Positions 11,395 to 30,244 of a stretch of DNA of 50,845 nucleotides are shown here, in pieces. A program made the position numbers and the translations under genes. How positions within the stretch are numbered: position 1 is the stretch's first letter; each line of letters opens with the position of its first letter. Under the pieces are notes generated by a model. The model saw nothing but the letters and a program-made list of their open reading frames with translations. It made no database searches and was not told the DNA's origin. Source of the DNA: a virus (Duplodnaviria; Caudoviricetes); IMG/VR virus record IMGVR_UViG_3300036854_000028, positions 1 to 50,845 of that record. One strand, written 5' to 3'.

Positions 11395-11691
11395 ATGTCC
11401 GACGAGTTGGCGGGCGACGAGCTGGCGGCCGTGATCCTGGTACCAGACGTCGAGCAGGACCGGTGGCTGGCCCGCTGCATGGACCACATCGAACGCTGCG
11501 GCTACCGGCTGGCGGCGATCGTGCGGCGCTGGGAGGACGCCCATCGGCTGATCGGCGCCGGGCAGGTCCAGGTCGTCGTCGTGGCCCGCCCGGAGCACAT
11601 CCCGCCGCAGCGGGTACCGCGGTTCGAGGTGGCCGGGGAAGAGGGGCCGGCGCTGACCCGCCGCCAGCGCCGGCCCCGGCCGATCAGCTGA
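11395..11691 (+). CDS. Hypothetical protein, possibly a degenerate resolvase-like fold
   Basis: GAGGAG RBS. C..HIERCGY.L...I.AG.V.VVVVAR echoes a serine-recombinase N-domain but lacks the YxRxS motif. Confidence 0.65.
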   Translation: MSDELAGDELAAVILVPDVEQDRWLARCMDHIERCGYRLAAIVRRWEDAHRLIGAGQVQVVVVARPEHIPPQRVPRFEVAGEEGPALTRRQRRPRPIS

Positions 11692-12508
11692 ACCTCGGCA
11701 GCGTTTCCCGGGCGGCGCGCTGCTGCGCGAGGGTCGCCTGCGTATAGATCTGCGTCGACTGAAGGGAGGCGTGGCCAAGGATCTCCTGGGTGACCCGGGC
11801 GTCGCGGTACGCGGCCTGCACGGTGACGCCGAGCCAGTGCCGCATCCGATGCAGGGCGACCCCGGGCATGCCGAGGCGGCGGCGGAAGTACACCGCCGAG
11901 CGGATGGAGATGTACTTGCGGTCGGCGCGCTCGCCCGTGCGTGGGTCTATGGCGATCGGCCCGGGCGGCAGGTCCCGCACGGCCTCCCACACGGCCGGAT
12001 CGGTGTCGTGCCAGCGCGGCTTGCCGCCTTTGCCTCGCACGACCAGCAGCCGTTCCTGCGTGATGTGCTCGCGGTCCAGGCCGGCGATCTCGCAGCACCG
12101 CAGGCCCTGGTAGGCGGCGATCAGGGACCAGAGCCGGTACGGCTCGATCGCCTCGGTGAGGATCCGGCGCAGCTGCTCGTGCTCGATGGGTCGGGCGATC
12201 CCCCGCGGCGCCCGTGGCTTGGGTGGCATGTACCGCATCGGGTTGTCCCCGCCCAGCCACGGGTCGTCGACGTCGAAGGAGCGCGCGTAGAACGAGGCGA
12301 GGGCTCCATAGTACGTCTCCTGGCTGGACAGCTGGCAGTCGTCGCGGTAGACGAGCGGGATCAGCTCGTCGGCGTTGGCCCGTTCGAGGCCGAACGGGAG
12401 CTGCTGATCCATGCGGGTGAGGATGTCGCGGCGACCATCGACGGTCGCCGCTGAACATCTGGCTTCTGGGCTAGCCAGCCACCTGAGGTATCGCTCCAGC
12501 ACTGTCAT
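11684..12508 (-). CDS. int: Tyrosine integrase/recombinase without an arm-binding domain
   Basis: Catalytic motifs GLRCCEI, RGKGGK, LHRMRH, LGHAS and TQIYT. About 274 aa (alternative start 12553). Confidence 0.95.
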   Translation of the reverse strand: MTVLERYLRWLASPEARCSAATVDGRRDILTRMDQQLPFGLERANADELIPLVYRDDCQLSSQETYYGALASFYARSFDVDDPWLGGDNPMRYMPPKPRAPRGIARPIEHEQLRRILTEAIEPYRLWSLIAAYQGLRCCEIAGLDREHITQERLLVVRGKGGKPRWHDTDPAVWEAVRDLPPGPIAIDPRTGERADRKYISIRSAVYFRRRLGMPGVALHRMRHWLGVTVQAAYRDARVTQEILGHASLQSTQIYTQATLAQQRAARETLPRFS

Positions 12509-12552
12509 TTCCTGATCGTCCGACTGCGGCTCGTGAGAATGTGATCGGGTCA

Positions 12553-13044
12553 TCAGGCGGCATCCCGGTTGCGGCCCGGCCGGATTGGCGCCGGTCGGCG
12601 GTGGCGGGGGGACTGGACGGGGATGCCGGGGTGGCTGGGCGGCCGGTTGTCAGCGGGCCGGACACGATCGGGGGAGCCCGAAGGGCCTGACCTTGCGGCC
12701 GGCCGCACCCTCGCAAGCGTAGGTTGCGAGGCTTTCCCCGTGCCGGATGCCGAAGGTCCGGTCGGCCGATAGACACCGGCCATGCAGGGGCCGGCGAGTA
12801 GCCATCCGTAGTCGACGCCGGTCCGCTCGGCGATCCGGGCGGCGATCTCGACTAGGCGTCGAGGCTGGGCGTTCTCCAGTTCCCAGAGGCGCCATGACGC
12901 TGCCGGCACGCCGCATGCGAGTGCGGCCTCTTTGATGTTCCACCCCATCCGCCAGCGCACCAGTGCGAGGCGCGCGGCGAAGCTCTCATCCGTCGGGATC
13001 CACGGCGGGGTCTCGACCGGGTTCCCCAGGACTTCGGCTGTCAT
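12553..13044 (-). CDS. Immunity repressor (XRE HTH) with a long disordered C-terminal tail
   Basis: FAARLALVR..MGWNIKEAALACG....W..WE...TGVDYGWLL. Divergent from the cro-like gene. Probably leaderless (TATCCT 6 nt upstream). Confidence 0.9.
   Translation of the reverse strand: MTAEVLGNPVETPPWIPTDESFAARLALVRWRMGWNIKEAALACGVPAASWRLWELENAQPRRLVEIAARIAERTGVDYGWLLAGPCMAGVYRPTGPSASGTGKASQPTLARVRPAARSGPSGSPDRVRPADNRPPSHPGIPVQSPRHRRPAPIRPGRNRDAA
12709..12731. other. Candidate attP core inside the repressor gene
   Basis: CCTCGCAA-GCGTAGG-TTGCGAGG: perfect 8-bp inverted repeats flanking a 7-bp asymmetric spacer. Confidence 0.5.
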
Positions 13045-13155
13045 GCCAACAGGATACCGGGTATGACACATCAGGCAACATATCTGGCATGAACCTGTCC
13101 TTGACACAGCTTTCTGAGTCAGAGTACCTTCATGTCCATGACACAGCTTCCCGAG
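13045..13155. promoter_or_regulatory. Divergent lysis/lysogeny promoters with repeated operators
   Basis: Rightward TTGACA (13101), N18, TACCTT (13125). Leftward TTGCCT, N16, TATCCT. TGACACAGCTTYCYGAG occurs at 13102 and 13139, and TGACACA at 13064. Confidence 0.85.
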
Positions 13156-13326
13156 CTTATGACGCCAGCGGAGGTAGCGGAAGCCCTCCGGCTCAGCGAC
13201 GAGACGATCCATCGCTGGGCGCGCATCGGGAAACTTCCGCACGTCGATGTCCTGGGCGTCAAGCGCTTCCGCCGTGAGGACGTCGAGGCGATCCTGCGCG
13301 GCGAGACCCCGGCGAGCGCCGCATGA
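13138..13326 (+). CDS. Cro/excisionase-like HTH (MerR-type) protein
   Basis: LMTPAEVAEALRLSDETIHRWARIGKLP...RFRREDVEAIL. First rightward early gene. Confidence 0.9.
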   Translation: MTQLPELMTPAEVAEALRLSDETIHRWARIGKLPHVDVLGVKRFRREDVEAILRGETPASAA

Positions 13327-13814
13327 GCGCCGCGTCGTATGTCCGCCAGCAGGCCCGCCGCGTCGAGGTAGCCGCCCGCGCTCGACGTACGCGGCCCAGC
13401 GACCGCCGCGACCTACCTGCGGGCCATCAGCTTTACGTCTACTGGGGCGGCATGCCCGGCGAATGCGGCGCTGAGTGCTCGTGTGGACTGGCGTTCGATG
13501 GCTTCGACCGCCTCGGTGAAGCGGTGAACCTGGTCGATCGGCACATCGCCATTTGTCGCGGCGCACGCCCGGATCACGCCGCCCGGGCGGTTGACATCCG
13601 CAACTGCTTCCCTGACGCACCACGAGGCGGCCGTCCGGTCCACACCGGCAGCGAGCGCAAGACGCCGTCAATGAGCATGGCGGTGCGCATCTGCGGCTAC
13701 TACGAGACGGGCCGCAAGGACATGACGCCGCGGCAGCGCCGCCGCGCATACAAGAAGTACCGGCGCGCCGAGCGCCGCCGGGCTGAACTGGCGGAGCTCG
13801 GCGGTGCGGCATGA
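13323..13814 (+). CDS. Hypothetical protein with C.C.G...H metal-binding motif
   Basis: ATGA overlap with the cro-like gene. Confidence 0.6.
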   Translation: MSAASYVRQQARRVEVAARARRTRPSDRRDLPAGHQLYVYWGGMPGECGAECSCGLAFDGFDRLGEAVNLVDRHIAICRGARPDHAARAVDIRNCFPDAPRGGRPVHTGSERKTPSMSMAVRICGYYETGRKDMTPRQRRRAYKKYRRAERRRAELAELGGAA

Positions 13815-13960
13815 ACCTGAAGCCCCCGCCGCGTCCGCGTCCCGGTCCCGATCCGGATCGCAACCCCTTCGGCCGGACCTGCGGCCTGACGCTGCTCGCC
13901 CTCCCGGTACTGCTGCCGCTCGTCGCGTGGCACTGGCTGCGGGCCTGGTGGTCCGCGTGA
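13811..13960 (+). CDS. Small Pro-rich membrane peptide (49 aa, not in the ORF track)
   Basis: MNLKPPPRPRPGPDPDRNPFGRTCGLTLLALPVLLPLVAWHWLRAWWSA. 4-bp overlaps at both ends. Confidence 0.65.
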   Translation: MNLKPPPRPRPGPDPDRNPFGRTCGLTLLALPVLLPLVAWHWLRAWWSA

Positions 13961-14175
13961 CCCGCCCGCCACGCCCGCCGCGCAATCCGACCGGAGGCCG
14001 CCGGACCGGAGGAGGCAACGCTGGCCGCGGCCCCGGACGCGCGGGCCGGTCGGGCACCAGTCCGCCGCCCGGGATGCGGCCTCCAGGGAAAGACAGCGCC
14101 GGCTGCGCGTTGCTCGCGCTCGCCGCCGCCGCCACGCCGGTGGCCGTGCTGATGCTGATGCTGGCGGTCCGGTGA
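13957..14175 (+). CDS. Small Pro/Gly-rich membrane peptide
   Basis: GTGA overlap. Ends GCALLALAAAATPVAVLMLMLAVR. Confidence 0.6.
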   Translation: MTRPPRPPRNPTGGRRTGGGNAGRGPGRAGRSGTSPPPGMRPPGKDSAGCALLALAAAATPVAVLMLMLAVR

Positions 14176-14414
14176 CCAAGAAACCCAACCAGCCGGCCGG
14201 CCCGAACTCCCCCGGGCCCGGGCCGAAGCCGCCGCCCCCGTCGCGGCCAGCGCCGACCCGGCCGACGCCCCCGGGGCCGACCCCGCCAGGCCCGGCGCCG
14301 GTGAAGACACTGCTGCCCGGCCCGTACGTAGGCCGCCACCGCGCACACCACGCCGAACCGACCCCGCTCTACTTCGCCACCCTCGTCGACCTCGCCGCCG
14401 CTGATCCCCGATGA
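14172..14414 (+). CDS. Pro-rich small protein
   Basis: GTGA overlap. Poly-Pro then YVGRHR. Confidence 0.6.
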   Translation: MTKKPNQPAGPNSPGPGPKPPPPSRPAPTRPTPPGPTPPGPAPVKTLLPGPYVGRHRAHHAEPTPLYFATLVDLAAADPR

Positions 14415-14424
14415 CCTCACCCAC

Positions 14425-14604
14425 GTCCCGCGCGGTGCGCCCCGGCAGGGGCGGCGGCGAGCGCACGCCGGGACACGGCCGCCCCGGGCGCTTCCCCCCG
14501 GCCCGGGGCGGCCACCAGACGGCTGCCGGCTCATGGAGTCGCCGGCAGATGGACACCGCTGGTGTCCAGCCCGGCCGGCCCGATCGGGAAGCGGGCCGGC
14601 CGGG
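14425..14604 (+). ncRNA. Candidate structured RNA with five tandem hairpins and complementary loops
   Basis: Stems at 14425-14474, 14477-14513 (13 bp), 14523-14548, 14550-14568 and 14570-14604 (13 bp). Loop CTTCCC is complementary to loop GGGAAG. Confidence 0.6.
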
Positions 14605-14637
14605 TAACCCCCCAACCCCCAACCCCCAGGAGATGTC

Positions 14638-15378
14638 GTGCCGAACCTGATCGACCTGGATGCCCTCCAGCTCGCCAAGGGCGCCCACCCCGATGGGCCG
14701 CCCCCCGGCGACCCGAACTGCGAGATGTGCCTCTTCGAGGCGTACAACGCCCTCCTCGCGTTCTGCGGCCAGCGCGAGATCGACGAGCTGACCGACGAAT
14801 GTCCCGACGACGTGTCGCCCATCCTGCACCGCATGGGCGTCTACTTGAACGACCTGCTGCCCGACGATGTGCGCCAGCACATGAAGCAGTACCTGCCCGA
14901 CCCCATCACCGGCCGTTCCCTCCTGTCCGGCACCCGCGACGACGGCCTCGACGAGCAGCGGCAGTGGATGGCCGCCGACTGGACCGTCCAGTACGCCCTG
15001 CCGCGCTGGCTCGACGCCACCGGCCACGCCGAGCACGCGGCGCGGCTGCGCGTACTCGCCCCGATCACCGACCCGGCGTCTCTCGACGCGGCGTGGCCAG
15101 TGGTGCTCGCGGTCCGCGAGCAGATGTGGAGGCTGCGCCAGTCGCGGCTGGCCGAACTGCGCGCGACGTACCGGGCTGCCGGTGCCGTTGCCGGTGCCGT
15201 TGCCGCTGCCGGTGCCGGTGCCGGTGCCGGTGCCGGTGCCGGTGCCGCGTACAACGCGACCTACTACAAGGTCTACCACGCGGTGCGGCTGCAGATCGAG
15301 GCCAGGTACGCGCCGGTGAGCGCCGAGCTCCAAGGCTCGGCGCTCGGCTTGTACCACCGCATGATCCGCCCCGCCTGA
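14638..15378 (+). CDS. Hypothetical phage protein with an Ala/Gly repeat
   Basis: CAGGAG RBS. L.KG.H...CLFEA...TD.CP..VSP......LND motif of a common phage family. Confidence 0.8.
   Translation: MPNLIDLDALQLAKGAHPDGPPPGDPNCEMCLFEAYNALLAFCGQREIDELTDECPDDVSPILHRMGVYLNDLLPDDVRQHMKQYLPDPITGRSLLSGTRDDGLDEQRQWMAADWTVQYALPRWLDATGHAEHAARLRVLAPITDPASLDAAWPVVLAVREQMWRLRQSRLAELRATYRAAGAVAGAVAAAGAGAGAGAGAGAAYNATYYKVYHAVRLQIEARYAPVSAELQGSALGLYHRMIRPA
15175..15246 (+). repeat. In-frame hexamer microsatellite (GNTGCC)12
   Basis: Twelve units. The last six are perfect GGTGCC. Confidence 0.95.
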
Positions 15379-15391
15379 CCCCGCACAGCAA

Positions 15392-15423
15392 CGTGGGGCT
15401 GGGCCCACACGCCCAGCCCCACG
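15392..15423 (+). terminator. Intergenic 13-bp hairpin (terminator or processing site)
   Basis: CGTGGGGCTGGGC-CCACAC-GCCCAGCCCCACG. No U-tract. Confidence 0.5.
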
Positions 15424-15437
15424 AGAAGGAGACTGCC

Positions 15438-15818
15438 ATGACGATCGTACCGAACACCACCGACGTGACCGAGCCGGACCCGAAGTCGCCCCGCCAAGTC
15501 CTCGCGGCGATCGCGCTCGCTGAGTTGCCGATGCCGCACCAGATCATCTTGTGGGCTCCCGGCGAGGTGTCCAAGGAGCCGTGCATGAAGCTGGACTTCC
15601 GGACCATGGCGGAAGGCGAACAGTGGCTCACCGCGCACGGCGGGACGCCGAGCCGTCGATGGAGCGACGGCTCGAAGCGGTACCACCTCGACCACGACGG
15701 CGGCTCTATCCTGTGGCTGGGCTGGCGGCTGCACTGCCACGCGAGCGAGGCCCTGTCGCCCGAGCCGGCCCCGCTGGATGACGAGACCCGCGAGCAACTG
15801 CGGGCGGTGGCGTCATGA
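15438..15818 (+). CDS. Hypothetical protein
   Basis: GAAGGAG RBS. Confidence 0.75.
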   Translation: MTIVPNTTDVTEPDPKSPRQVLAAIALAELPMPHQIILWAPGEVSKEPCMKLDFRTMAEGEQWLTAHGGTPSRRWSDGSKRYHLDHDGGSILWLGWRLHCHASEALSPEPAPLDDETREQLRAVAS

Positions 15819-16006
15819 GCGACCTGTACCGGCTGTGGTGGCACACCGACCGCGGGCTCGGGCACACGGATCCCCTGTCGTGGGAGCAGGCCCACCGGCG
15901 CTACGACGAGCTGATGCACGGGCCGTGCGTGTACCACCGGCCGGTGCATCTGGTCACCGACGAGCAGTTCCTGCGCGCGTACGCCGAGGCGGTGCTGGCC
16001 GGATGA
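15815..16006 (+). CDS. Hypothetical protein
   Basis: ATGA overlap chain with GC3-rich codons. Confidence 0.65.
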   Translation: MSDLYRLWWHTDRGLGHTDPLSWEQAHRRYDELMHGPCVYHRPVHLVTDEQFLRAYAEAVLAG

Positions 16007-16317
16007 TGTCGACGACTGACCCGTGGTGCCTGGCCCTCGCGGTGGAGCGGATGGCGGCCCGGTACGGCGCGGCCTGCCTCGACTTCGGGCTGGCCGAGCG
16101 CGGCAGCCGCGAGGAAGACGCGGCTCGGCGCGCCATGTACCGCCGCTTCCGGGCGTTGTGCCGCCTCACCGCCGGAGCGCTGGAGGAGCACCAGCAAGCG
16201 ACCCGACCGCTGCGGGTGGCCGCACTGTTCGAGGAGCCCCGGGCCGAGGCCGCGGTGGCCGGAGTGGAGCTGACCCCCGTGTCGTGGGGCCGCACCCCGG
16301 TCGGAGGGGCCACGTGA
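16003..16317 (+). CDS. Hypothetical protein
   Basis: ATGA overlap chain. Confidence 0.6.
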   Translation: MMSTTDPWCLALAVERMAARYGAACLDFGLAERGSREEDAARRAMYRRFRALCRLTAGALEEHQQATRPLRVAALFEEPRAEAAVAGVELTPVSWGRTPVGGAT

Positions 16318-16532
16318 GCCGCGCCGACCACGTAGCGTGGCGCTACCGGCATGGCGGCCGGGTACGCCATGCACTGATCGACGCCCATGACCACGAGGCC
16401 CTCTGCGGCACCTTCGTCCTCGACCCGGCCTGGTGGTACGGCACCGGCAGCCAGGACGAGCACGCGCGCTGCGCGGTGCTACCGGCGTGCCGGATCTGCG
16501 TCCGCAGGCTCGGGATCGAGGCGACGTCGTGA
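16314..16532 (+). CDS. Small zinc-binding protein
   Basis: GGAGG RBS. H...ALCG...C..C motif. Confidence 0.65.
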   Translation: MSRADHVAWRYRHGGRVRHALIDAHDHEALCGTFVLDPAWWYGTGSQDEHARCAVLPACRICVRRLGIEATS

Positions 16533-16738
16533 CCGTCGCGCAGCTCGCCGTCATCGCCATCGTCTACGCCTCGGTCCGGGTCGCCGGGTGGGGCATCGCC
16601 GTCCTGCGGCGGCGTGCGCGGCGCCCAGATCCGGTCGACGCGCACGCCGCTACCGCCCCCGTCGACCCGCTCACCCAACAAGACGTCCACCGATACCTCG
16701 CCGACATCCAGCGCTATCTACAGGAGCACGCCGAATGA
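16529..16738 (+). CDS. Small membrane protein
   Basis: GTGA overlap and N-terminal TM. Confidence 0.6.
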   Translation: MTVAQLAVIAIVYASVRVAGWGIAVLRRRARRPDPVDAHAATAPVDPLTQQDVHRYLADIQRYLQEHAE

Positions 16739-17283
16739 TCCTCGTCCCGCTCGCCCTCGCCCTACTGGCCGCCGTTCTGGCCGCGGCAACGGTGTCGCTG
16801 CTGGCCCGCCGCCGCCAGCGTGAGGCCGAGCAGCAGGAGCCCGTCCATCCGGTACCGCCGATTGCCGAGCGCCGGCGTGTGCTGCTGCGGCTGGTGCGCC
16901 GGTTGGTCCAGCGTCGCCGCGACACATCGCGCGACACATCGTGGGCAGGCGCCACCGAGCACTGGTCACCGGCTGCGGAGATCGGCGACCAGGACCTCAC
17001 CGCGGAGCTGGTCACGCCGGCCGAGCAGCGGGCGGCCGACCACGCCGCCCTCGATCCGCTCGGCGACGCCACCCGCGAGTTCGGCGACGCCGTCTGGCAG
17101 GCCATCGACCACTTCCTCCGCGACGACCCGGCGGCGGCGCTGAGGGTGCGCTCGGGAGCGGACCAGACGGCCGAATGGACCGCGGCCGAAGTCGCTGATC
17201 TGCGGGCCGCGCTCGACGACGACGAGCTGGCGGCATGGATGGACCAGCTGGAGACGGTACGACCGGTCGGAGGTGCGCGGTGA
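16735..17283 (+). CDS. Membrane-anchored hypothetical protein
   Basis: AGGAG RBS. N-terminal TM MILVPLALALLAAVLAAA. Confidence 0.65.
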   Translation: MILVPLALALLAAVLAAATVSLLARRRQREAEQQEPVHPVPPIAERRRVLLRLVRRLVQRRRDTSRDTSWAGATEHWSPAAEIGDQDLTAELVTPAEQRAADHAALDPLGDATREFGDAVWQAIDHFLRDDPAAALRVRSGADQTAEWTAAEVADLRAALDDDELAAWMDQLETVRPVGGAR

Positions 17284-17453
17284 GCCAGGACATGCAGCCG
17301 AAGGTGTACCACGAGGTGACCGTGGCCGGTCGCACCCGCCGCTGGACTGGCTGGCGGGCCCTGGCCGTCGCATACGGGCCGGTCGCTATGTTCGCGTTCA
17401 TGCTCGGCGTCCTCGTCGGCACGCTGCTCGCGCTGATCGGCGGTGCGTGGTGA
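17280..17453 (+). CDS. Small membrane protein
   Basis: GGAGG RBS and C-terminal TM. Confidence 0.6.
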   Translation: MSQDMQPKVYHEVTVAGRTRRWTGWRALAVAYGPVAMFAFMLGVLVGTLLALIGGAW

Positions 17454-17755
17454 CCACGACGATCGCCGAGCGGGTCGCCGCCGGAGCCGCGTGGCTCGAC
17501 GAGCACCGGCCCGGCTGGGATCAGCGGATCGACCTGGAGACGCTGGACCTCGGCGACCCCTGTCACTGCGTGCTCGGGCAGGAGTACGGCAACTACGGCG
17601 ACTCGCCGGAAGAGATTCGCTGGGAACGCAGGCCGGCCGGTGAGGACGTGTGGGTCGCGCCGCTGTTCGGCTTCCACGAATGGAACGAGCGCAACTACGA
17701 CGTCCTGACCGCCGAGTGGCGCCGGCTCATCGAGGAGCGGAGGGCCGCACGGTGA
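17450..17755 (+). CDS. Conserved phage hypothetical protein
   Basis: ERVAAGAAWLD...PGW...IDL..LDL...CVLGQ motif. Confidence 0.75.
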   Translation: MTTTIAERVAAGAAWLDEHRPGWDQRIDLETLDLGDPCHCVLGQEYGNYGDSPEEIRWERRPAGEDVWVAPLFGFHEWNERNYDVLTAEWRRLIEERRAAR

Positions 17756-17943
17756 TCGTGCCCGCCACGCAGATCGCCGCCACCATCGACGAGCGCCAGC
17801 CCCCCGGGACCCGCTATCCGCGGTTCGGCAGCTACCTGGGTGACCGGGCCGCGTACCTGCGCGCCGAGTCGCAGGCGATCGAGGCCGACATGCAGCGCCT
17901 CGTCGGCACCCTCCGCGCGGCCCGGATCGGAGTCGGGCAGTGA
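17752..17943 (+). CDS. Hypothetical protein
   Basis: GTGA overlap chain. Confidence 0.55.
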   Translation: MIVPATQIAATIDERQPPGTRYPRFGSYLGDRAAYLRAESQAIEADMQRLVGTLRAARIGVGQ

Positions 17944-18374
17944 CCGGCGTCGTCCCGGCCGAGCAGATTCTCGCCGACATCGACACGCGTGGGGGGGAAA
18001 CACCCCGCGCCGTCCATCCCGTCGTCCGCGATCTGACACTGATCCGTAGGCGGCAAGGCCGTTCGCAGAGCGGAGTCAGCCGTGACGCCGACCTGTCTCA
18101 GCAGTCGATCTGCCGTTGGGAGATGGGAGACGTCGTACCGCGACTGGACAACCTCGCCGCGTGGGCCGGCGCACTTGGGTACGACCTTGTGCTCCGGCAG
18201 CGTGTCGTGGTCCCCGATCCGGATGTCGTAACCCCCGCGCAAGGTAACCGCGTCACGGACGACATGGGCCGCTACGGCGTTGACGCGGTACTCGCGGGCC
18301 GCGTCGGGCGTACCGCCGACGCGTTCGAGACGCCAGCCGAGATCGCCGCACACGACCGGAGGTTGGACGCATGA
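17940..18374 (+). CDS. XRE-family HTH protein
   Basis: IRRRQGRSQSGVSRDADLSQQSICRWEMG..VP.LDNL..WAGALG. Confidence 0.8.
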   Translation: MTGVVPAEQILADIDTRGGETPRAVHPVVRDLTLIRRRQGRSQSGVSRDADLSQQSICRWEMGDVVPRLDNLAAWAGALGYDLVLRQRVVVPDPDVVTPAQGNRVTDDMGRYGVDAVLAGRVGRTADAFETPAEIAAHDRRLDA

Positions 18375-19366
18375 CCGCGCCCGCCGTCACCCGCCGCGTC
18401 ACCCCGACCGCATACCGGGTCCTCCCCGCCGATGCTGACCGCGACCTGTGGCTCGCCCGCCGCCGCGCCGGGATCGGCTCCTCCGACGTCGCCGCGATCC
18501 TCGGGCTATCGGGGCAGCGCACGCCCGTGCACGTGTGGCGAGACAAGCGGGGCGAGATGGTCGACGAGCAGACCGAGCCCATGCTGTGGGGCACGCTGCT
18601 CGAAGATACCGTCGCCCGCGAGTGGGCCCGACGCAACCGCTCCGTCATCCAACGCGTCGGGCTGGTCGCGAACATCGAGCACCCATGGCGACTGGCTACC
18701 CTCGACCGGCGCGTCGCCGAGTGCCCACTGAACCGAGCCGCCCGCGAAGCGTGCGCGCTGGAGATCAAGTGCCGCAATGCGTTCACCACGCACCGCTGGC
18801 GCTCCGACGTTCCCGACGACGTCCTCGCCCAGGTCGCCTGGCAACTGGCCGTCACTGGCTACGAGCACATCCACGTCGGGGTACTCATCGGTGGCAACGA
18901 CTACCGGCAGACCGTCGTGCGGCGCGACGTCGATGTCGAGCGGTACATCCTCGCCGAGGTCGACCGGTTCCGCACCGACCATGTGCTCGCCGACGTCGAA
19001 CCGCCCTGGGATCTGACGAAGGCCGCCGCGCTGGTCGAGCTGGACAACCTGATGCACCCGGACCGGGTCGGTGAGATCGACGTCGTCGAGATCGGCGAAG
19101 TGCTGGAGTACGCGGCGGCGTCCGCCGCGAAGGGCGCCGCCGAGCGGCGCCTGAAGGCCGCCCGCGCCGAGCTGGCCCGGCTGGCCGCTGGTCGTCGCGT
19201 CGTCACGTTCGGCGGCGAGCTGGCGTACGAATTCGCTCCGGTCGCGAAGGCCACGCCGGACCTCGACGCGCTCGCCGAGCGGTGGCCCGACGCGTACGCC
19301 GACTGCGTGATCGACAAGCACCACCACCAGATCCGTCTCAACCCGGCACTACGGCAGGGAGCCTGA
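18371..19366 (+). CDS. YqaJ/RecE-like exonuclease
   Basis: WL..RRAGIGSSDVAAILG, WG..LE, LATLDR, LEIK and AQV.WQL.VTG motifs. Confidence 0.92.
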   Translation: MTAPAVTRRVTPTAYRVLPADADRDLWLARRRAGIGSSDVAAILGLSGQRTPVHVWRDKRGEMVDEQTEPMLWGTLLEDTVAREWARRNRSVIQRVGLVANIEHPWRLATLDRRVAECPLNRAAREACALEIKCRNAFTTHRWRSDVPDDVLAQVAWQLAVTGYEHIHVGVLIGGNDYRQTVVRRDVDVERYILAEVDRFRTDHVLADVEPPWDLTKAAALVELDNLMHPDRVGEIDVVEIGEVLEYAAASAAKGAAERRLKAARAELARLAAGRRVVTFGGELAYEFAPVAKATPDLDALAERWPDAYADCVIDKHHHQIRLNPALRQGA

Positions 19367-19368
19367 AG

Positions 19369-19575
19369 ATGACCGAACCGACACCGCGTCGCCGCCAGAT
19401 CTCCTGGGCGGACGTGCCTGCCCTGCTCCCACCCGACCCGGGACAGGTCGAACTGCTCGGCCTGGGTGTGCTCGTCGCCGTACTGGAGCGCATGTCGAGC
19501 GCCGAACGGCGCCGCGCGCTGGTGTACCTGGCTGACCGCTATGGCGAGAAGGCGGCGGCCAGCGATGACCAGTAG
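19369..19575 (+). CDS. Hypothetical protein
   Basis: GGGAG RBS. Fills the gap between the exonuclease and ERF genes. Confidence 0.6.
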   Translation: MTEPTPRRRQISWADVPALLPPDPGQVELLGLGVLVAVLERMSSAERRRALVYLADRYGEKAAASDDQ

Positions 19576-20332
19576 CCTTCGCCAGCGCGCTACGGCCGCC
19601 GCCAACGGCCAGCCTGCCATCGTCGCACCGAGCACCGACGGTTCGCCCGAACCCGAGCTTGCTCCATACCCCGACGTACCTGAGGCGACCGGCGACCCGG
19701 ACATGGTGTCGGTGTTCGTCGCCTGGAACCGGGTCATGCGCGACGTCGCCGGCATCGCTAAGTCCGAGAAGACGGAAACCGGCACCCGGTACAACTTTCG
19801 GGGCGTTGACCGTGTGGTCAACGCGTTCGGGCCGTCGGTGCGACGCCACGGCATCATCGTGGTACCCGTCAGGGTCACCCCCGCGCACCGGGACGCGAAG
19901 TCGACCAACGACAAGAACATGCGCGAAACGACCACGGTCGTCGACTGGCGCGTGTACGGGCCGTGCGGCGACTACTTCGACGGGCAGACGGAGGGCGAGT
20001 CCCTGGACGTGTCCGACAAGGGCACCGCGAAGGCCCAGTCGATCGCCGAGCGGGTGTTCCTGCTCATCACCGGCATGGTGCCCACCGATGAGCCCGAGCC
20101 GGACAAGACGGTGCATGAGCGCGGTGAGCAGCCCGCGCCGAACCCGGCCGCGTACCGCGACGAGATGACCGACCCGCGTACGTCGCTGGGTCGGCTGCGG
20201 CAGATCCGCACGGAGATCGTTCAGCATCGAATGGCCGGGGTGGTGCAGACCAACGAGGTCGGCGACGAGGAGGGGCTGCTGGCCATGTGCGACCGGATCG
20301 GCCGGGAGCGTCGGGCGGGTGGCGAGCCGTGA
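19565..20332 (+). CDS. ERF-family single-strand annealing protein
   Basis: VM.DV..IAK...YNFRGVD.VVNA..P....HGI and GES.D..DKGTAKAQS. Adjacent to YqaJ. Confidence 0.88.
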   Translation: MTSSLRQRATAAANGQPAIVAPSTDGSPEPELAPYPDVPEATGDPDMVSVFVAWNRVMRDVAGIAKSEKTETGTRYNFRGVDRVVNAFGPSVRRHGIIVVPVRVTPAHRDAKSTNDKNMRETTTVVDWRVYGPCGDYFDGQTEGESLDVSDKGTAKAQSIAERVFLLITGMVPTDEPEPDKTVHERGEQPAPNPAAYRDEMTDPRTSLGRLRQIRTEIVQHRMAGVVQTNEVGDEEGLLAMCDRIGRERRAGGEP

Positions 20333-20538
20333 TGGCCACCTGGATCTGCATGGACTGTGGCATGTACGACCCGTACGACGGCGACGGGGACGGCATCGGG
20401 TCGTGTGACTGTCCTCGCTGCGAGTGGTGCGGCGGCCCGCCGGGTATGGGCTGCTGCCCCGAGGACGAGCTGCCGGACTGGCCCGACGACGTGATCGTGC
20501 CCGTGGTCACCGAGACGGCCGACGTGCGGTGGCTGTGA
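20329..20538 (+). CDS. Small Cys-rich protein
   Basis: Multiple CxxC and CxC motifs. Overlap chain. Confidence 0.6.
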   Translation: MMATWICMDCGMYDPYDGDGDGIGSCDCPRCEWCGGPPGMGCCPEDELPDWPDDVIVPVVTETADVRWL

Positions 20539-23124: not shown

Positions 23125-23366
23125 GCACGCAACCCGAGCCCCACACGCTGTGGCTCGACCGCCGGCGGACCGCCGCCGTCCCGATGCCGGACTGGCGCCG
23201 CGTCCTCCGTGTGACAGCCGCCAACCCGGACGGGTACGTGGAGGGGACCGGCTGGTGGCAGCGGTTCTACGACGGCCGCTGGCAGGACGCGACCGAGAGC
23301 CGCCGGACCCGCATGCGGTACGAGTCGTTCACGACGCGCTACACGCCCGTTGAGGAGGGCCAGTGA
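23121..23366 (+). CDS. Hypothetical protein
   Basis: GGAGG RBS and GTGA overlap. Confidence 0.65.
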   Translation: MSTQPEPHTLWLDRRRTAAVPMPDWRRVLRVTAANPDGYVEGTGWWQRFYDGRWQDATESRRTRMRYESFTTRYTPVEEGQ

Positions 23367-23599
23367 CCGCCGACGTACGCCAGGAACACCGCGGTGAGGT
23401 CATCGTCCGTGATGCCACCGCGCTGACCGCCGAGCAGCTCATCCGCATCAACGCGGCCACGCTCGCGGTCCAACGCCTCGGCCCGATCACCATCGGCGAG
23501 TTCAGCTCGCCGATGGTGGCCATCGACGTGTTGCTCGACGCCAGCAGCGCCGTCGCCCGGTGGCTGCGCGACGGCGACGCAGAGGAGGCCGACCGGTGA
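23363..23599 (+). CDS. Hypothetical protein
   Basis: GGAGG RBS and GTGA overlap. Confidence 0.65.
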   Translation: MTADVRQEHRGEVIVRDATALTAEQLIRINAATLAVQRLGPITIGEFSSPMVAIDVLLDASSAVARWLRDGDAEEADR

Positions 23600-29510: not shown

Positions 29511-29854
29511 AACCTGCCCCGGCTGCGGCGAGCTGCTCACCGACCCGAAAGACTGCGACCACTGCGAATACTTCAACCTCGCCAGCGGCCGGAACCACTA
29601 CTGCGGGCGGGACGAGTGCTACTGCCGGGAGCTTCGCCGAACCATGAAGCGCGAGGTTCTTGGCCAGTTCGCGGCTCGCCATGCCGCCACCTTCGCTGGC
29701 TGGCAAGCGCTCCGTGTCGCGTTCGCCGACCGGCCGGACCTGCTTCACCCCGGCGTCGGAGATTTCATCGCGCGGACCGTCGTAGACGCGGCGTGGCCGA
29801 TCCTCGGCGTCCGACCGGCCGCGAGCGAGACGGGAGACGGCGATGGCCGCTGAA
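29481..29854 (+). repeat. 31-bp direct repeats at gene junctions
   Basis: AGCGAGACGGGAGACGGCGATGGCYGCTGAA at 29481-29511 and 29824-29854, one mismatch. Confidence 0.9.
29500..29853 (+). CDS. Cys-rich hypothetical protein
   Basis: RBS and ATG lie within the repeat. CxxC motifs. Confidence 0.65.
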   Translation: MAAETCPGCGELLTDPKDCDHCEYFNLASGRNHYCGRDECYCRELRRTMKREVLGQFAARHAATFAGWQALRVAFADRPDLLHPGVGDFIARTVVDAAWPILGVRPAASETGDGDGR

Positions 29855-30244
29855 CCTGTCTCCGACCTCATGCGCACCGTCGGCGCCCGCATCCGCGCGC
29901 TCCGCGAAATCTACGACGTGACCCAGGAAGAGATCGCCAAGGAAGCCGGCCTCAACCGCACCTCGATCACCAACATCGAGTCCGGCCGGCAGAACGCCCA
30001 ACTCGACGCGCTCGCCGCCGTCGCGAAGCACTTCGGGGTGTCGCTGGGCGCGCTGCTCGGCGAGTCCGACCTGCCCGCCCTCAGCCGCGTCCTCGTCGTG
30101 TCGGTATGCGAGGTGCGCTGCGAAACCTGCGGCGTGGTCGCTCAGGACTTGCCCCACGCGCAGGCGTACGAGGTGCGCAAGCAGCACATCCGGGGACACC
30201 TCGGCGCCGCCGTAGCCAAGATGATGGGAGGCGCCGATGGCTGA
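29843..30244 (+). CDS. XRE HTH protein with C-terminal C2H-like motif
   Basis: VGARIRALR...TQEEIAKEAGLNRTSITNIESGRQ. Confidence 0.88.
   Translation: MAAEPVSDLMRTVGARIRALREIYDVTQEEIAKEAGLNRTSITNIESGRQNAQLDALAAVAKHFGVSLGALLGESDLPALSRVLVVSVCEVRCETCGVVAQDLPHAQAYEVRKQHIRGHLGAAVAKMMGGADG

Follow-up and report, generated by a model that had tools for sequence, protein, structure and literature searches.

A non-coding array of five hairpins in the early operon of an uncultured soil actinophage: a possible site of transcription termination or attenuation

The window analysed here is the whole 50,845-bp stretch of a complete IMG/VR virus record (IMGVR_UViG_3300036854_000028; GC content ~70%), which represents a temperate, high-GC soil actinophage with a rightward early operon. 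Its terminase shares at most ~45% identity with those of Arthrobacter, Mycobacterium and Gordonia phages, and the searches made among GenBank phages and IMG/VR returned no close relatives. DNA matches between the 7.9-kb early region and GenBank phages were confined to the repressor/Cro gene of 25 distant actinophages, and positions 14100-14700 had no match there. Three soil metagenome runs, each from a different study and two of them possibly the source of the record, yielded contigs with the same phage sequence; none of the runs listed as carrying it is an RNA run. The 50.8-kb window contains no tRNA genes that a search could find.

All genes from position 13132 to ~33 kb lie on the + strand, methyltransferase and RNase H genes among them (Table 1). 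This gene content, with divergent repressor and HTH genes followed by recombination and replication genes, justifies the label of early operon under which the hairpins had originally been described. The hairpin array lies ~1.3 kb into this operon, counted from the presumed divergent promoter region, between a putative Pro-rich ORF and a gene for a 246-aa protein. A scan restricted to sigma-70-like promoters found none on either strand of 12400-16400; the array thus appears to lie inside an operon, and the genes downstream of it would need read-through. Further along, 15 consecutive + strand genes (15438-20538) either overlap by 4-11 nt (ATGA/GTGA type) or are separated by a 2-nt gap, a packing that points to translational coupling as far as the RecE-like and Erf-like recombination genes. 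Two more HTH regulators in the same operon (17940-18371 and 29843-30241), one with a CII-like or repressor-like PHROG match and the other of XRE type, may serve the phage as regulators of its own at a later stage. Between the early HTH gene and the array sit two small ORFs (13811-13960, 49 aa; 14074-14175, 33 aa) with coding-like GC3 and hydrophobic, membrane-span-like tails, for which no homologues were found, including in the 82 related loci described below.

Table 1 Features of the early region around the hairpin array (positions in the window).
Feature	Position	Strand	Details
Tyrosine integrase	11684-12553	-	
XRE-type repressor	12556-13044	-	PHROG 2328; DNA similarity to actinophage immunity repressor/Cro genes
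HTH_17, excisionase-like gene	13132-13326	+	Divergent from the repressor
Putative Pro-rich ORF, 80 aa	14172-14414	+	Stop (14412-14414) 10 nt before H1
C-rich, G-poor tract of rut-like composition	14344-14421	+	C 41, G 13; C/G 3.15
Hairpin H1	14425-14474	+	Imperfect, branched tip; -31.7 kcal/mol
Hairpin H2	14477-14513	+	Perfect 13 bp; 11-nt loop with CTTCCC (14491-14496); -33.9 kcal/mol
Hairpin H3	14523-14548	+	8 bp; 10-nt loop; -14.9 kcal/mol
Hairpin H4	14550-14568	+	8 bp; 3-nt loop; -11.7 kcal/mol
Hairpin H5	14569-14605	+	Perfect 13 bp (14 with flanking G-U); 9-nt loop; -34.0 kcal/mol
G-free, C/A-rich leader	14605-14628	+	24 nt; directly after H5
Shine-Dalgarno AGGAG and GTG start	14628-14632 and 14638	+	Start matches N-termini of homologues P0001 and P0002
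246-aa gene	14638-15378	+	Phage family with internal Ala/Gly repeat
Perfect 13-bp hairpin	15392-15423	+	14 nt past the stop of the 246-aa gene
Next gene after the 246-aa gene	starts 15438	+	Gene caller
RecE-like gene	18371	+	Recombination gene
Erf-like gene	19565	+	Recombination gene
Replication-initiator gene	22088	+	

Folding with RNAfold reproduced the arrangement first noticed by eye in the sequence: positions 14425-14604 are filled by five back-to-back stems, two of them perfect over 13 bp. In total, 64 base pairs engage 128 of the 180 nt, successive hairpins are spaced by 2 (H1-H2), 9 (H2-H3), 1 (H3-H4) and 0 nt (H4-H5), and a repeat search found both 13-bp arms (H2 and H5) to be 100% complementary. 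The minimum free energy of the stretch (-130.0 kcal/mol) was well below that of 200 dinucleotide shuffles (-108.4 ± 4.7 kcal/mol; z -4.6), none of which was as stable. Stem density, which the original prediction had proposed as a test, likewise exceeded what shuffling produced: two stems of at least 13 bp arose in 0 of 5000 shuffles of the 180 nt and a single such stem in 6 of 5000, while four stems of at least 8 bp arose once in 5000. Across the whole window, five stems of 13 bp or longer were found (two of them in the array) compared with 0.03 expected from 40 block shuffles. When minimum free energy was regressed on GC content over ~1,690 sliding 180-nt windows, the array window ranked first on the + strand, though with a z of only -3.1, and fifth on the - strand (z -3.3). 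The array is real and structured well beyond chance. Its fold is nearly as stable on one strand as on the other (-130.0 kcal/mol on +, with one G-U pair, versus -129.3 kcal/mol on -), and this symmetry means that structure alone cannot tell which strand, or whether RNA or DNA, matters. Elsewhere in the phage, perfect 13-bp hairpins also occur at 11643-11677, where ORF 11395-11691 and the integrase gene converge, and at 23488-23518, inside ORF 23363-23599. Other strong hairpins of the phage lie just behind genes (at 15392, 20617, 48085, 8534 and 6445).

The array stretch is non-coding. Real genes in this region combine high GC3 with low GC2 (GC1/2/3 of 0.75/0.49/0.91 in the 246-aa gene), and codon-position GC revealed no coding signal in any frame of 14415-14637. 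ORF 14411-14650 (79 aa), which overlays the hairpins, has GC1/2/3 of 0.73/0.76/0.85. Conservation of its product had been named as a finding that would undermine an RNA-level interpretation, and a search of 1.84 billion representatives returned only the ORF itself and one 25-residue low-complexity match; it had no Pfam match and no match in the 82 related loci. The Pro-rich ORF that precedes the array is itself putative: its GC1/2/3 (0.78/0.69/0.88 overall, 0.81/0.51/0.81 in the C-terminal half) makes a coding signal plausible, but it had no Pfam or PHROG match, had no relative in the 82 loci and was not called by a codon-score gene caller. On the - strand, a 951-aa open frame (12553-15408) spans the whole region, hairpins included, and looks real only in its last ~163 codons, which are those of the repressor; as the frame is mostly spurious, raw ORFs are unreliable at 70% GC.

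In the collections searched, the array appears to be without conserved relatives. A scan of the whole window against Rfam 15 at gathering thresholds gave no matches, in agreement with the initial impression that no recognised family is represented, and at E ≤ 10 positions 14100-14900 gave only two sub-threshold matches, both on the - strand (isrB, 20.9 bits versus 35 needed; mir-9193, 15.7 versus 55). Within the phage genome the array matched only itself, with no second copy, and the H2 and H5 stem patterns had no exact matches in viral contigs. When the array and its flanks were compared by blastn with 82 loci (272 kb) carrying homologues of the 246-aa gene, matches were limited to low-complexity or short GC-rich sequence, the best of them (E 0.004) at a non-syntenic place, and neither the array nor the small upstream ORFs had a counterpart there. 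The 300-nt upstream regions of these loci were also compared all-against-all by blastn, and only those of L027 and L068 were alike. Among 401 Actinomycetota genomes, a set whose tally includes one unpublished genome (G089) that none of our claims depends on, 64 had short GC-rich matches only, and the best one examined fell inside a coding frame. For the three soil metagenome runs, no differences were listed inside the array where contigs cover it.

The base composition of both flanks is extreme. Upstream, the C-rich tract exceeds every other 78-nt window of the 50.8-kb genome in C/G ratio (the median being 1.04). It stops 3 nt short of H1 and lies mostly inside the putative Pro-rich ORF. Downstream, where a C-rich spacer and then a ribosome-binding site had been described, H5 is followed by the G-free leader, AGGAG and GTG. 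The leader is the longest G-free run of the genome and includes a CCCCCAA repeat (14609-14628, period 7, 2.9 copies by TRF), and the C/G ratio of 14600-14677 (2.06) stands at the 99th percentile of the genome. Since a milder G depletion at -40 to -21 is general in 57 homologous loci (G 0.25-0.28 versus 0.34 overall), the 24-nt leader represents an extreme form of a common unstructured leader. A C>G tract upstream was not found as a trait common to the positional analogues of the array discussed below, whose percentiles ranged from 0.33 to 0.90. On the complementary strand, the repeat in the leader reads as TTGGGGG units, which resemble those of ciliate telomeres.

The 246-aa protein had no Pfam or PHROG match and no match among GenBank phage proteins, and in viral contigs no relatives were found for the 246-aa, 126-aa or 163-aa proteins. 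Homologues were recovered by a word-indexed search (2), in genome contigs (2) and in soil and other metagenome contigs (138, of which 80 were kept), and 82 loci make up the set used here. In the ESM Atlas the protein matched only phage clusters without a name, apart from a weak Imm5_like lead (0.81). Members of the family share a conserved N-terminal part of ~160 aa with invariant Cys residues and a conserved C-terminal part of ~45 aa. A hexanucleotide (Ala/Gly) repeat in the gene (15177-15247, 11.8 copies) is the point at which Logan contigs break; in the homologues P0001 and P0002, the repeats are made of Ala/Asp/Gly/Val and are much longer, and repeat length thus varies among phages. With the array on one side and the hairpin at 15392-15423 on the other, the 246-aa gene is bracketed by hairpins, as is its homologue in L008 and L063. 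Such bracketing suggests a cassette or moron-like unit, though no promoter was found between the array and the gene.

Structured sequence in the same position occurs before some homologues of this gene. We examined 60 of the 82 loci (the other 22 had a match that started only from residue 29 onwards or was located at the end of a contig, or were otherwise not tabulated) and dropped three near-duplicates, leaving 57. In L008, six hairpins of 10-20 pairs extend from -277 to -30 relative to the start of the homologous gene (z -4.0), and four hairpins occupy -167 to -25 in L010 (z -4.4); the upstream region of L063 also has excess structure (z -4.05), and those of L006 and L049 are weaker. These clusters share only position with the array, their sequences being unrelated to it. 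In the window and in L006, L008, L010, L049 and L063, 25-50 nt separate the end of the last hairpin from the start codon. Perfect hairpins of at least 10 bp were more frequent within 150 nt upstream of the gene than elsewhere in the loci (0.70/kb versus 0.146/kb), a comparison that mixes intergenic with genic sequence and rests on six hairpins in 5 of the 57 loci, most loci having no such hairpin in that interval. The closest relatives tested (L002, L003, L004 and L007; 52-55% identity) showed no excess structure (z -1.5 to +1.5). Of the loci, 24 contain the complete gene followed by 80 nt or more of sequence, and in 5 of these, L008, L063 and L083 among them, a hairpin of at least 8 bp stands just behind the gene. 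A remote possibility is that multi-hairpin clusters of unrelated sequence recur before members of this family, as in the window, L008, L010 and L063; such a pattern would hint at insulated cassettes as an arrangement peculiar to the family.

The reading we favour, and to which we give an even chance, is that the array is a termination or attenuation site, possibly Rho-assisted, which also stabilises RNA ends. Structure, non-coding nature, position, missing U-tracts and flanking composition are observations; transcription of the array together with the early genes, an arrest or slowing of RNA polymerase there and any part played by Rho are what we infer from them. It would punctuate the rightward early transcript by a partial stop, functionally like lambda tR1, and would set the first small genes, which run from the HTH/excisionase-like gene up to the Pro-rich ORF, apart from the gene for the 246-aa protein and from the tightly coupled recombination and replication genes behind it. 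The G-free leader would keep the next ribosome-binding site unpaired. Among the functions originally offered for the array, a processing element overlaps with this combination of terminator, attenuator and RNA-end stabiliser, whereas a put-like RNA has gained no support (see below).

The mode of such termination would be unusual by the standard of canonical intrinsic terminators. GC-rich hairpins are present, but the 7-9-nt U-rich tract is absent: a terminator scan found no + strand hairpin-plus-T-run sites within the array, and the tails behind H2, H4 and H5 are C/A/G-rich. With no U-tract on any hairpin, the array hairpins are not canonical intrinsic terminators, and termination would need either the U-less "hairpin cluster" mode (described for high-GC bacteria, and for phiC31) or assistance by Rho through the C-rich, G-poor flanks. 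Because no promoter was found downstream and the genes from 15438 to 20538 are tightly packed, any stop would have to be partial or regulated. The array hairpins are separated by 0-9 nt and begin 10 nt past a putative stop codon. Their spacing fits the published definition of terminator hairpin clusters that lack poly-U, which are hairpins less than 15 nt apart and at most 80 nt past a stop codon, and their placement would fit it too if the Pro-rich ORF is real (PMC8355165). The concept rests on RNA-seq correlation (PMC8355165), and it is contradicted for the mycobacterial polymerase by an in vitro result: hairpins without a U-tract did not make purified mycobacterial RNA polymerase terminate, even when NusA and NusG were present (PMC3993855). 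With regard to Rho, mycobacterial Rut sites are described as C>G-biased and structured (PMC13650167), a preference that the flanks of the array fit. A C>G-biased, Rut-like tract is present at 14344-14421 on the presumed transcript. Stem-loops further mark the 3' ends of Rho-independent and Rho-dependent transcripts alike (PMC13613805). Also in favour of punctuation are the strong hairpins behind other genes of the phage, those of phiC31 described below and the unrelated clusters before homologues of the 246-aa gene in L008, L010 and L063. Weighing against termination are the equally stable - strand fold, the modest GC-regressed z value, the small share of loci with an upstream hairpin (5 of 57), the lack of excess structure in the four closest relatives tested, the merely putative status of the ORF whose stop precedes the array, and a C>G tract that the analogues do not have in common.

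Clearly less probable, in our judgement, is that the array acts on RNA stability or processing and does not terminate transcription, its hairpins serving as barriers to 3' exonucleases or to RNases that depend on the 5' end, or as RNase cleavage sites, that set separate half-lives for the upstream and downstream parts of the transcript. The same structural facts would serve this explanation, as would the missing U-tracts, and the distance of 25-50 nt from last hairpin to start codon, seen in the window and five other loci, would leave a protecting structure close to a processed 5' end. RNase III usually needs about two helical turns, however, and the 13-bp stems are shorter than that; the extreme C-rich flanks are also left unexplained. 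The in vitro behaviour of the actinobacterial polymerase towards U-less hairpins (PMC3993855) counts in favour of stability or processing as it counts against termination.

We think it decidedly unlikely that the palindromes act only at the DNA level, either as sites for protein binding or recombination where two modules meet, or as quasi-palindromes perfected by template switching. In favour of this, the fold is symmetric between strands, the two long stems are perfect and contain no wobble pairs, and the hairpins that bracket the 246-aa gene here, in L008 and in L063 resemble cassette boundaries. On the other hand, the five palindromes differ in sequence and so do not form a repeated operator, the array matches only itself in the phage and has no real match in the 401 Actinomycetota genomes, and its place on the transcribed strand, with a putative stop ahead of it and a ribosome-binding site behind, agrees with RNA punctuation.

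Little credence attaches to a dedicated cis-acting riboregulator, that is, a put-like antitermination or Rho-antagonising RNA compacted by a kissing loop between H2 and H5. The original prediction was right in placing CTTCCC in the loop of H2 and GGGAAG in that of H5 (14586-14591), and loops of 11 and 9 nt could host 6 bp; the contact itself is unsupported, a complement of this kind being a 2-4% chance event. More exactly, some pair among the five loops was perfectly complementary over 6 nt in 2.3-3.7% of randomisations, a low frequency that speaks for the contact, but the H2/H5 pair was picked post hoc from ~74 possible 6-mer pairings. The loops of the L008 and L010 clusters, read by eye, contained no such complement, and an extended pairing of the 5' arm of H2 with the 3' arm of H5 is 24 kcal/mol worse than the minimum free energy structure. 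The position of the array upstream of ~18 kb of early-operon genes that need read-through would suit an antiterminator; against one stand the lack of an Rfam match, the lack of any homologue in the collections searched, or of a second copy, and hence of covariation, and the lack of listed differences inside the array in the three soil runs. Nothing was found in favour of the put-like antitermination RNA first proposed, the array having a single copy in the genome, ~1.3 kb from the presumed promoter region. A more elaborate version, in which the array and its C-rich flanks form a switch from early to delayed-early transcription (the flanks loading Rho and the H2-H5-compacted array gating polymerase, whose release or passage might be set by a phage early protein), seems to us just as doubtful. 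If true, it would amount to an RNA-based checkpoint of lambda-N/put type in actinophages, of which we know none.

A free-standing small RNA gene is highly improbable: 180 nt of dense structure outside known families would agree with one, but no promoter-like site was found on either strand of 12400-16400, there is no U-tract terminator, and the element is wedged between a putative stop and a ribosome-binding site and is not conserved anywhere searched. Scarcely credible is the notion that ORF 14411-14650 is a gene and its hairpins incidental, since, although the frame is open and overlaps the ORF before it by ATGA, its codon-position GC is unlike that of real genes here, its Arg/Gly/Pro-rich product is junk-like and it had no relatives in the collections searched, and we reject it.

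The array is of a known kind, intergenic hairpin punctuation of high-GC phages, and does not define a new class of RNA. Only its size, at five hairpins, and the extreme C-rich flanks set it apart; taken alone, it is unremarkable for a phage genome of high GC. If the termination or attenuation reading is correct, the array is where immediate-early gives way to later early transcription in this uncultured actinophage, and an unusually elaborate case of U-less hairpin punctuation. Whether U-less signals stop actinobacterial RNA polymerase alone, via Rho or not at all is disputed between the two studies concerned (PMC8355165 versus PMC3993855). An array of five U-less hairpins between extreme C-rich flanks would offer a clean test substrate for this dispute.

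Known systems resemble the array to differing degrees. It shares with REP/BIME elements a set of tandem GC-rich palindromes in an intergenic gap. REP/BIME palindromes are thought to be RNA-end stabilisers or weak terminators and form repeated families, whereas the five hairpins of the array all differ and each is unique in the phage. A REP/BIME- or MITE-type repeat was rejected on the single copy in the phage and the lack of a real match in the 401 Actinomycetota genomes. HK022 put is a ~70-nt two-stem RNA behind both early promoters. Like it, the array is a cis-located structured RNA, as we read it, in a phage early operon and upstream of genes that need read-through; unlike it, the array has five hairpins over 180 nt in one copy, ~1.3 kb downstream of the divergent promoter region, with no shared-sequence copies behind each early promoter and no family match.

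The Rho-dependent terminators of high-GC Actinobacteria (PMC13650167, PMC13613805) also set C>G tracts beside structure and have a stem-loop for the 3' end. The array differs in that its G-free leader is only 24 nt long, its C-rich tract lies mostly in a putative ORF and its positional analogues lack the bias. Compared with the hairpin clusters of Gupta and Pal 2021 (PMC8355165), the array likewise has gaps of less than 15 nt, a location near a (putative) stop and no poly-U; that class is inter-operon and built mostly of 2-10-bp stems, whereas the array probably lies inside an operon and has two 13-bp stems.

In our scan of phiC31, 8 of 9 perfect hairpins of at least 9 bp were intergenic and lay 8-107 nt past stop codons, only 2 of the 9 had a T-rich tail behind them, and tandem pairs occurred at 1192/1221 and 29543/29590. 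Rho-independent terminators that lack a U-tail were reportedly obtained from the phiC31 early region by Ingham, Hunter and Smith in 1995 (NAR 23:370). Although phiC31 has single hairpins or pairs where the array has five in a row, no sequence similarity links the two and termination at the array is putative, both are made of intergenic GC-rich hairpins in the early region of a high-GC temperate actinophage, placed soon after stop codons and mostly without a T-rich tail.
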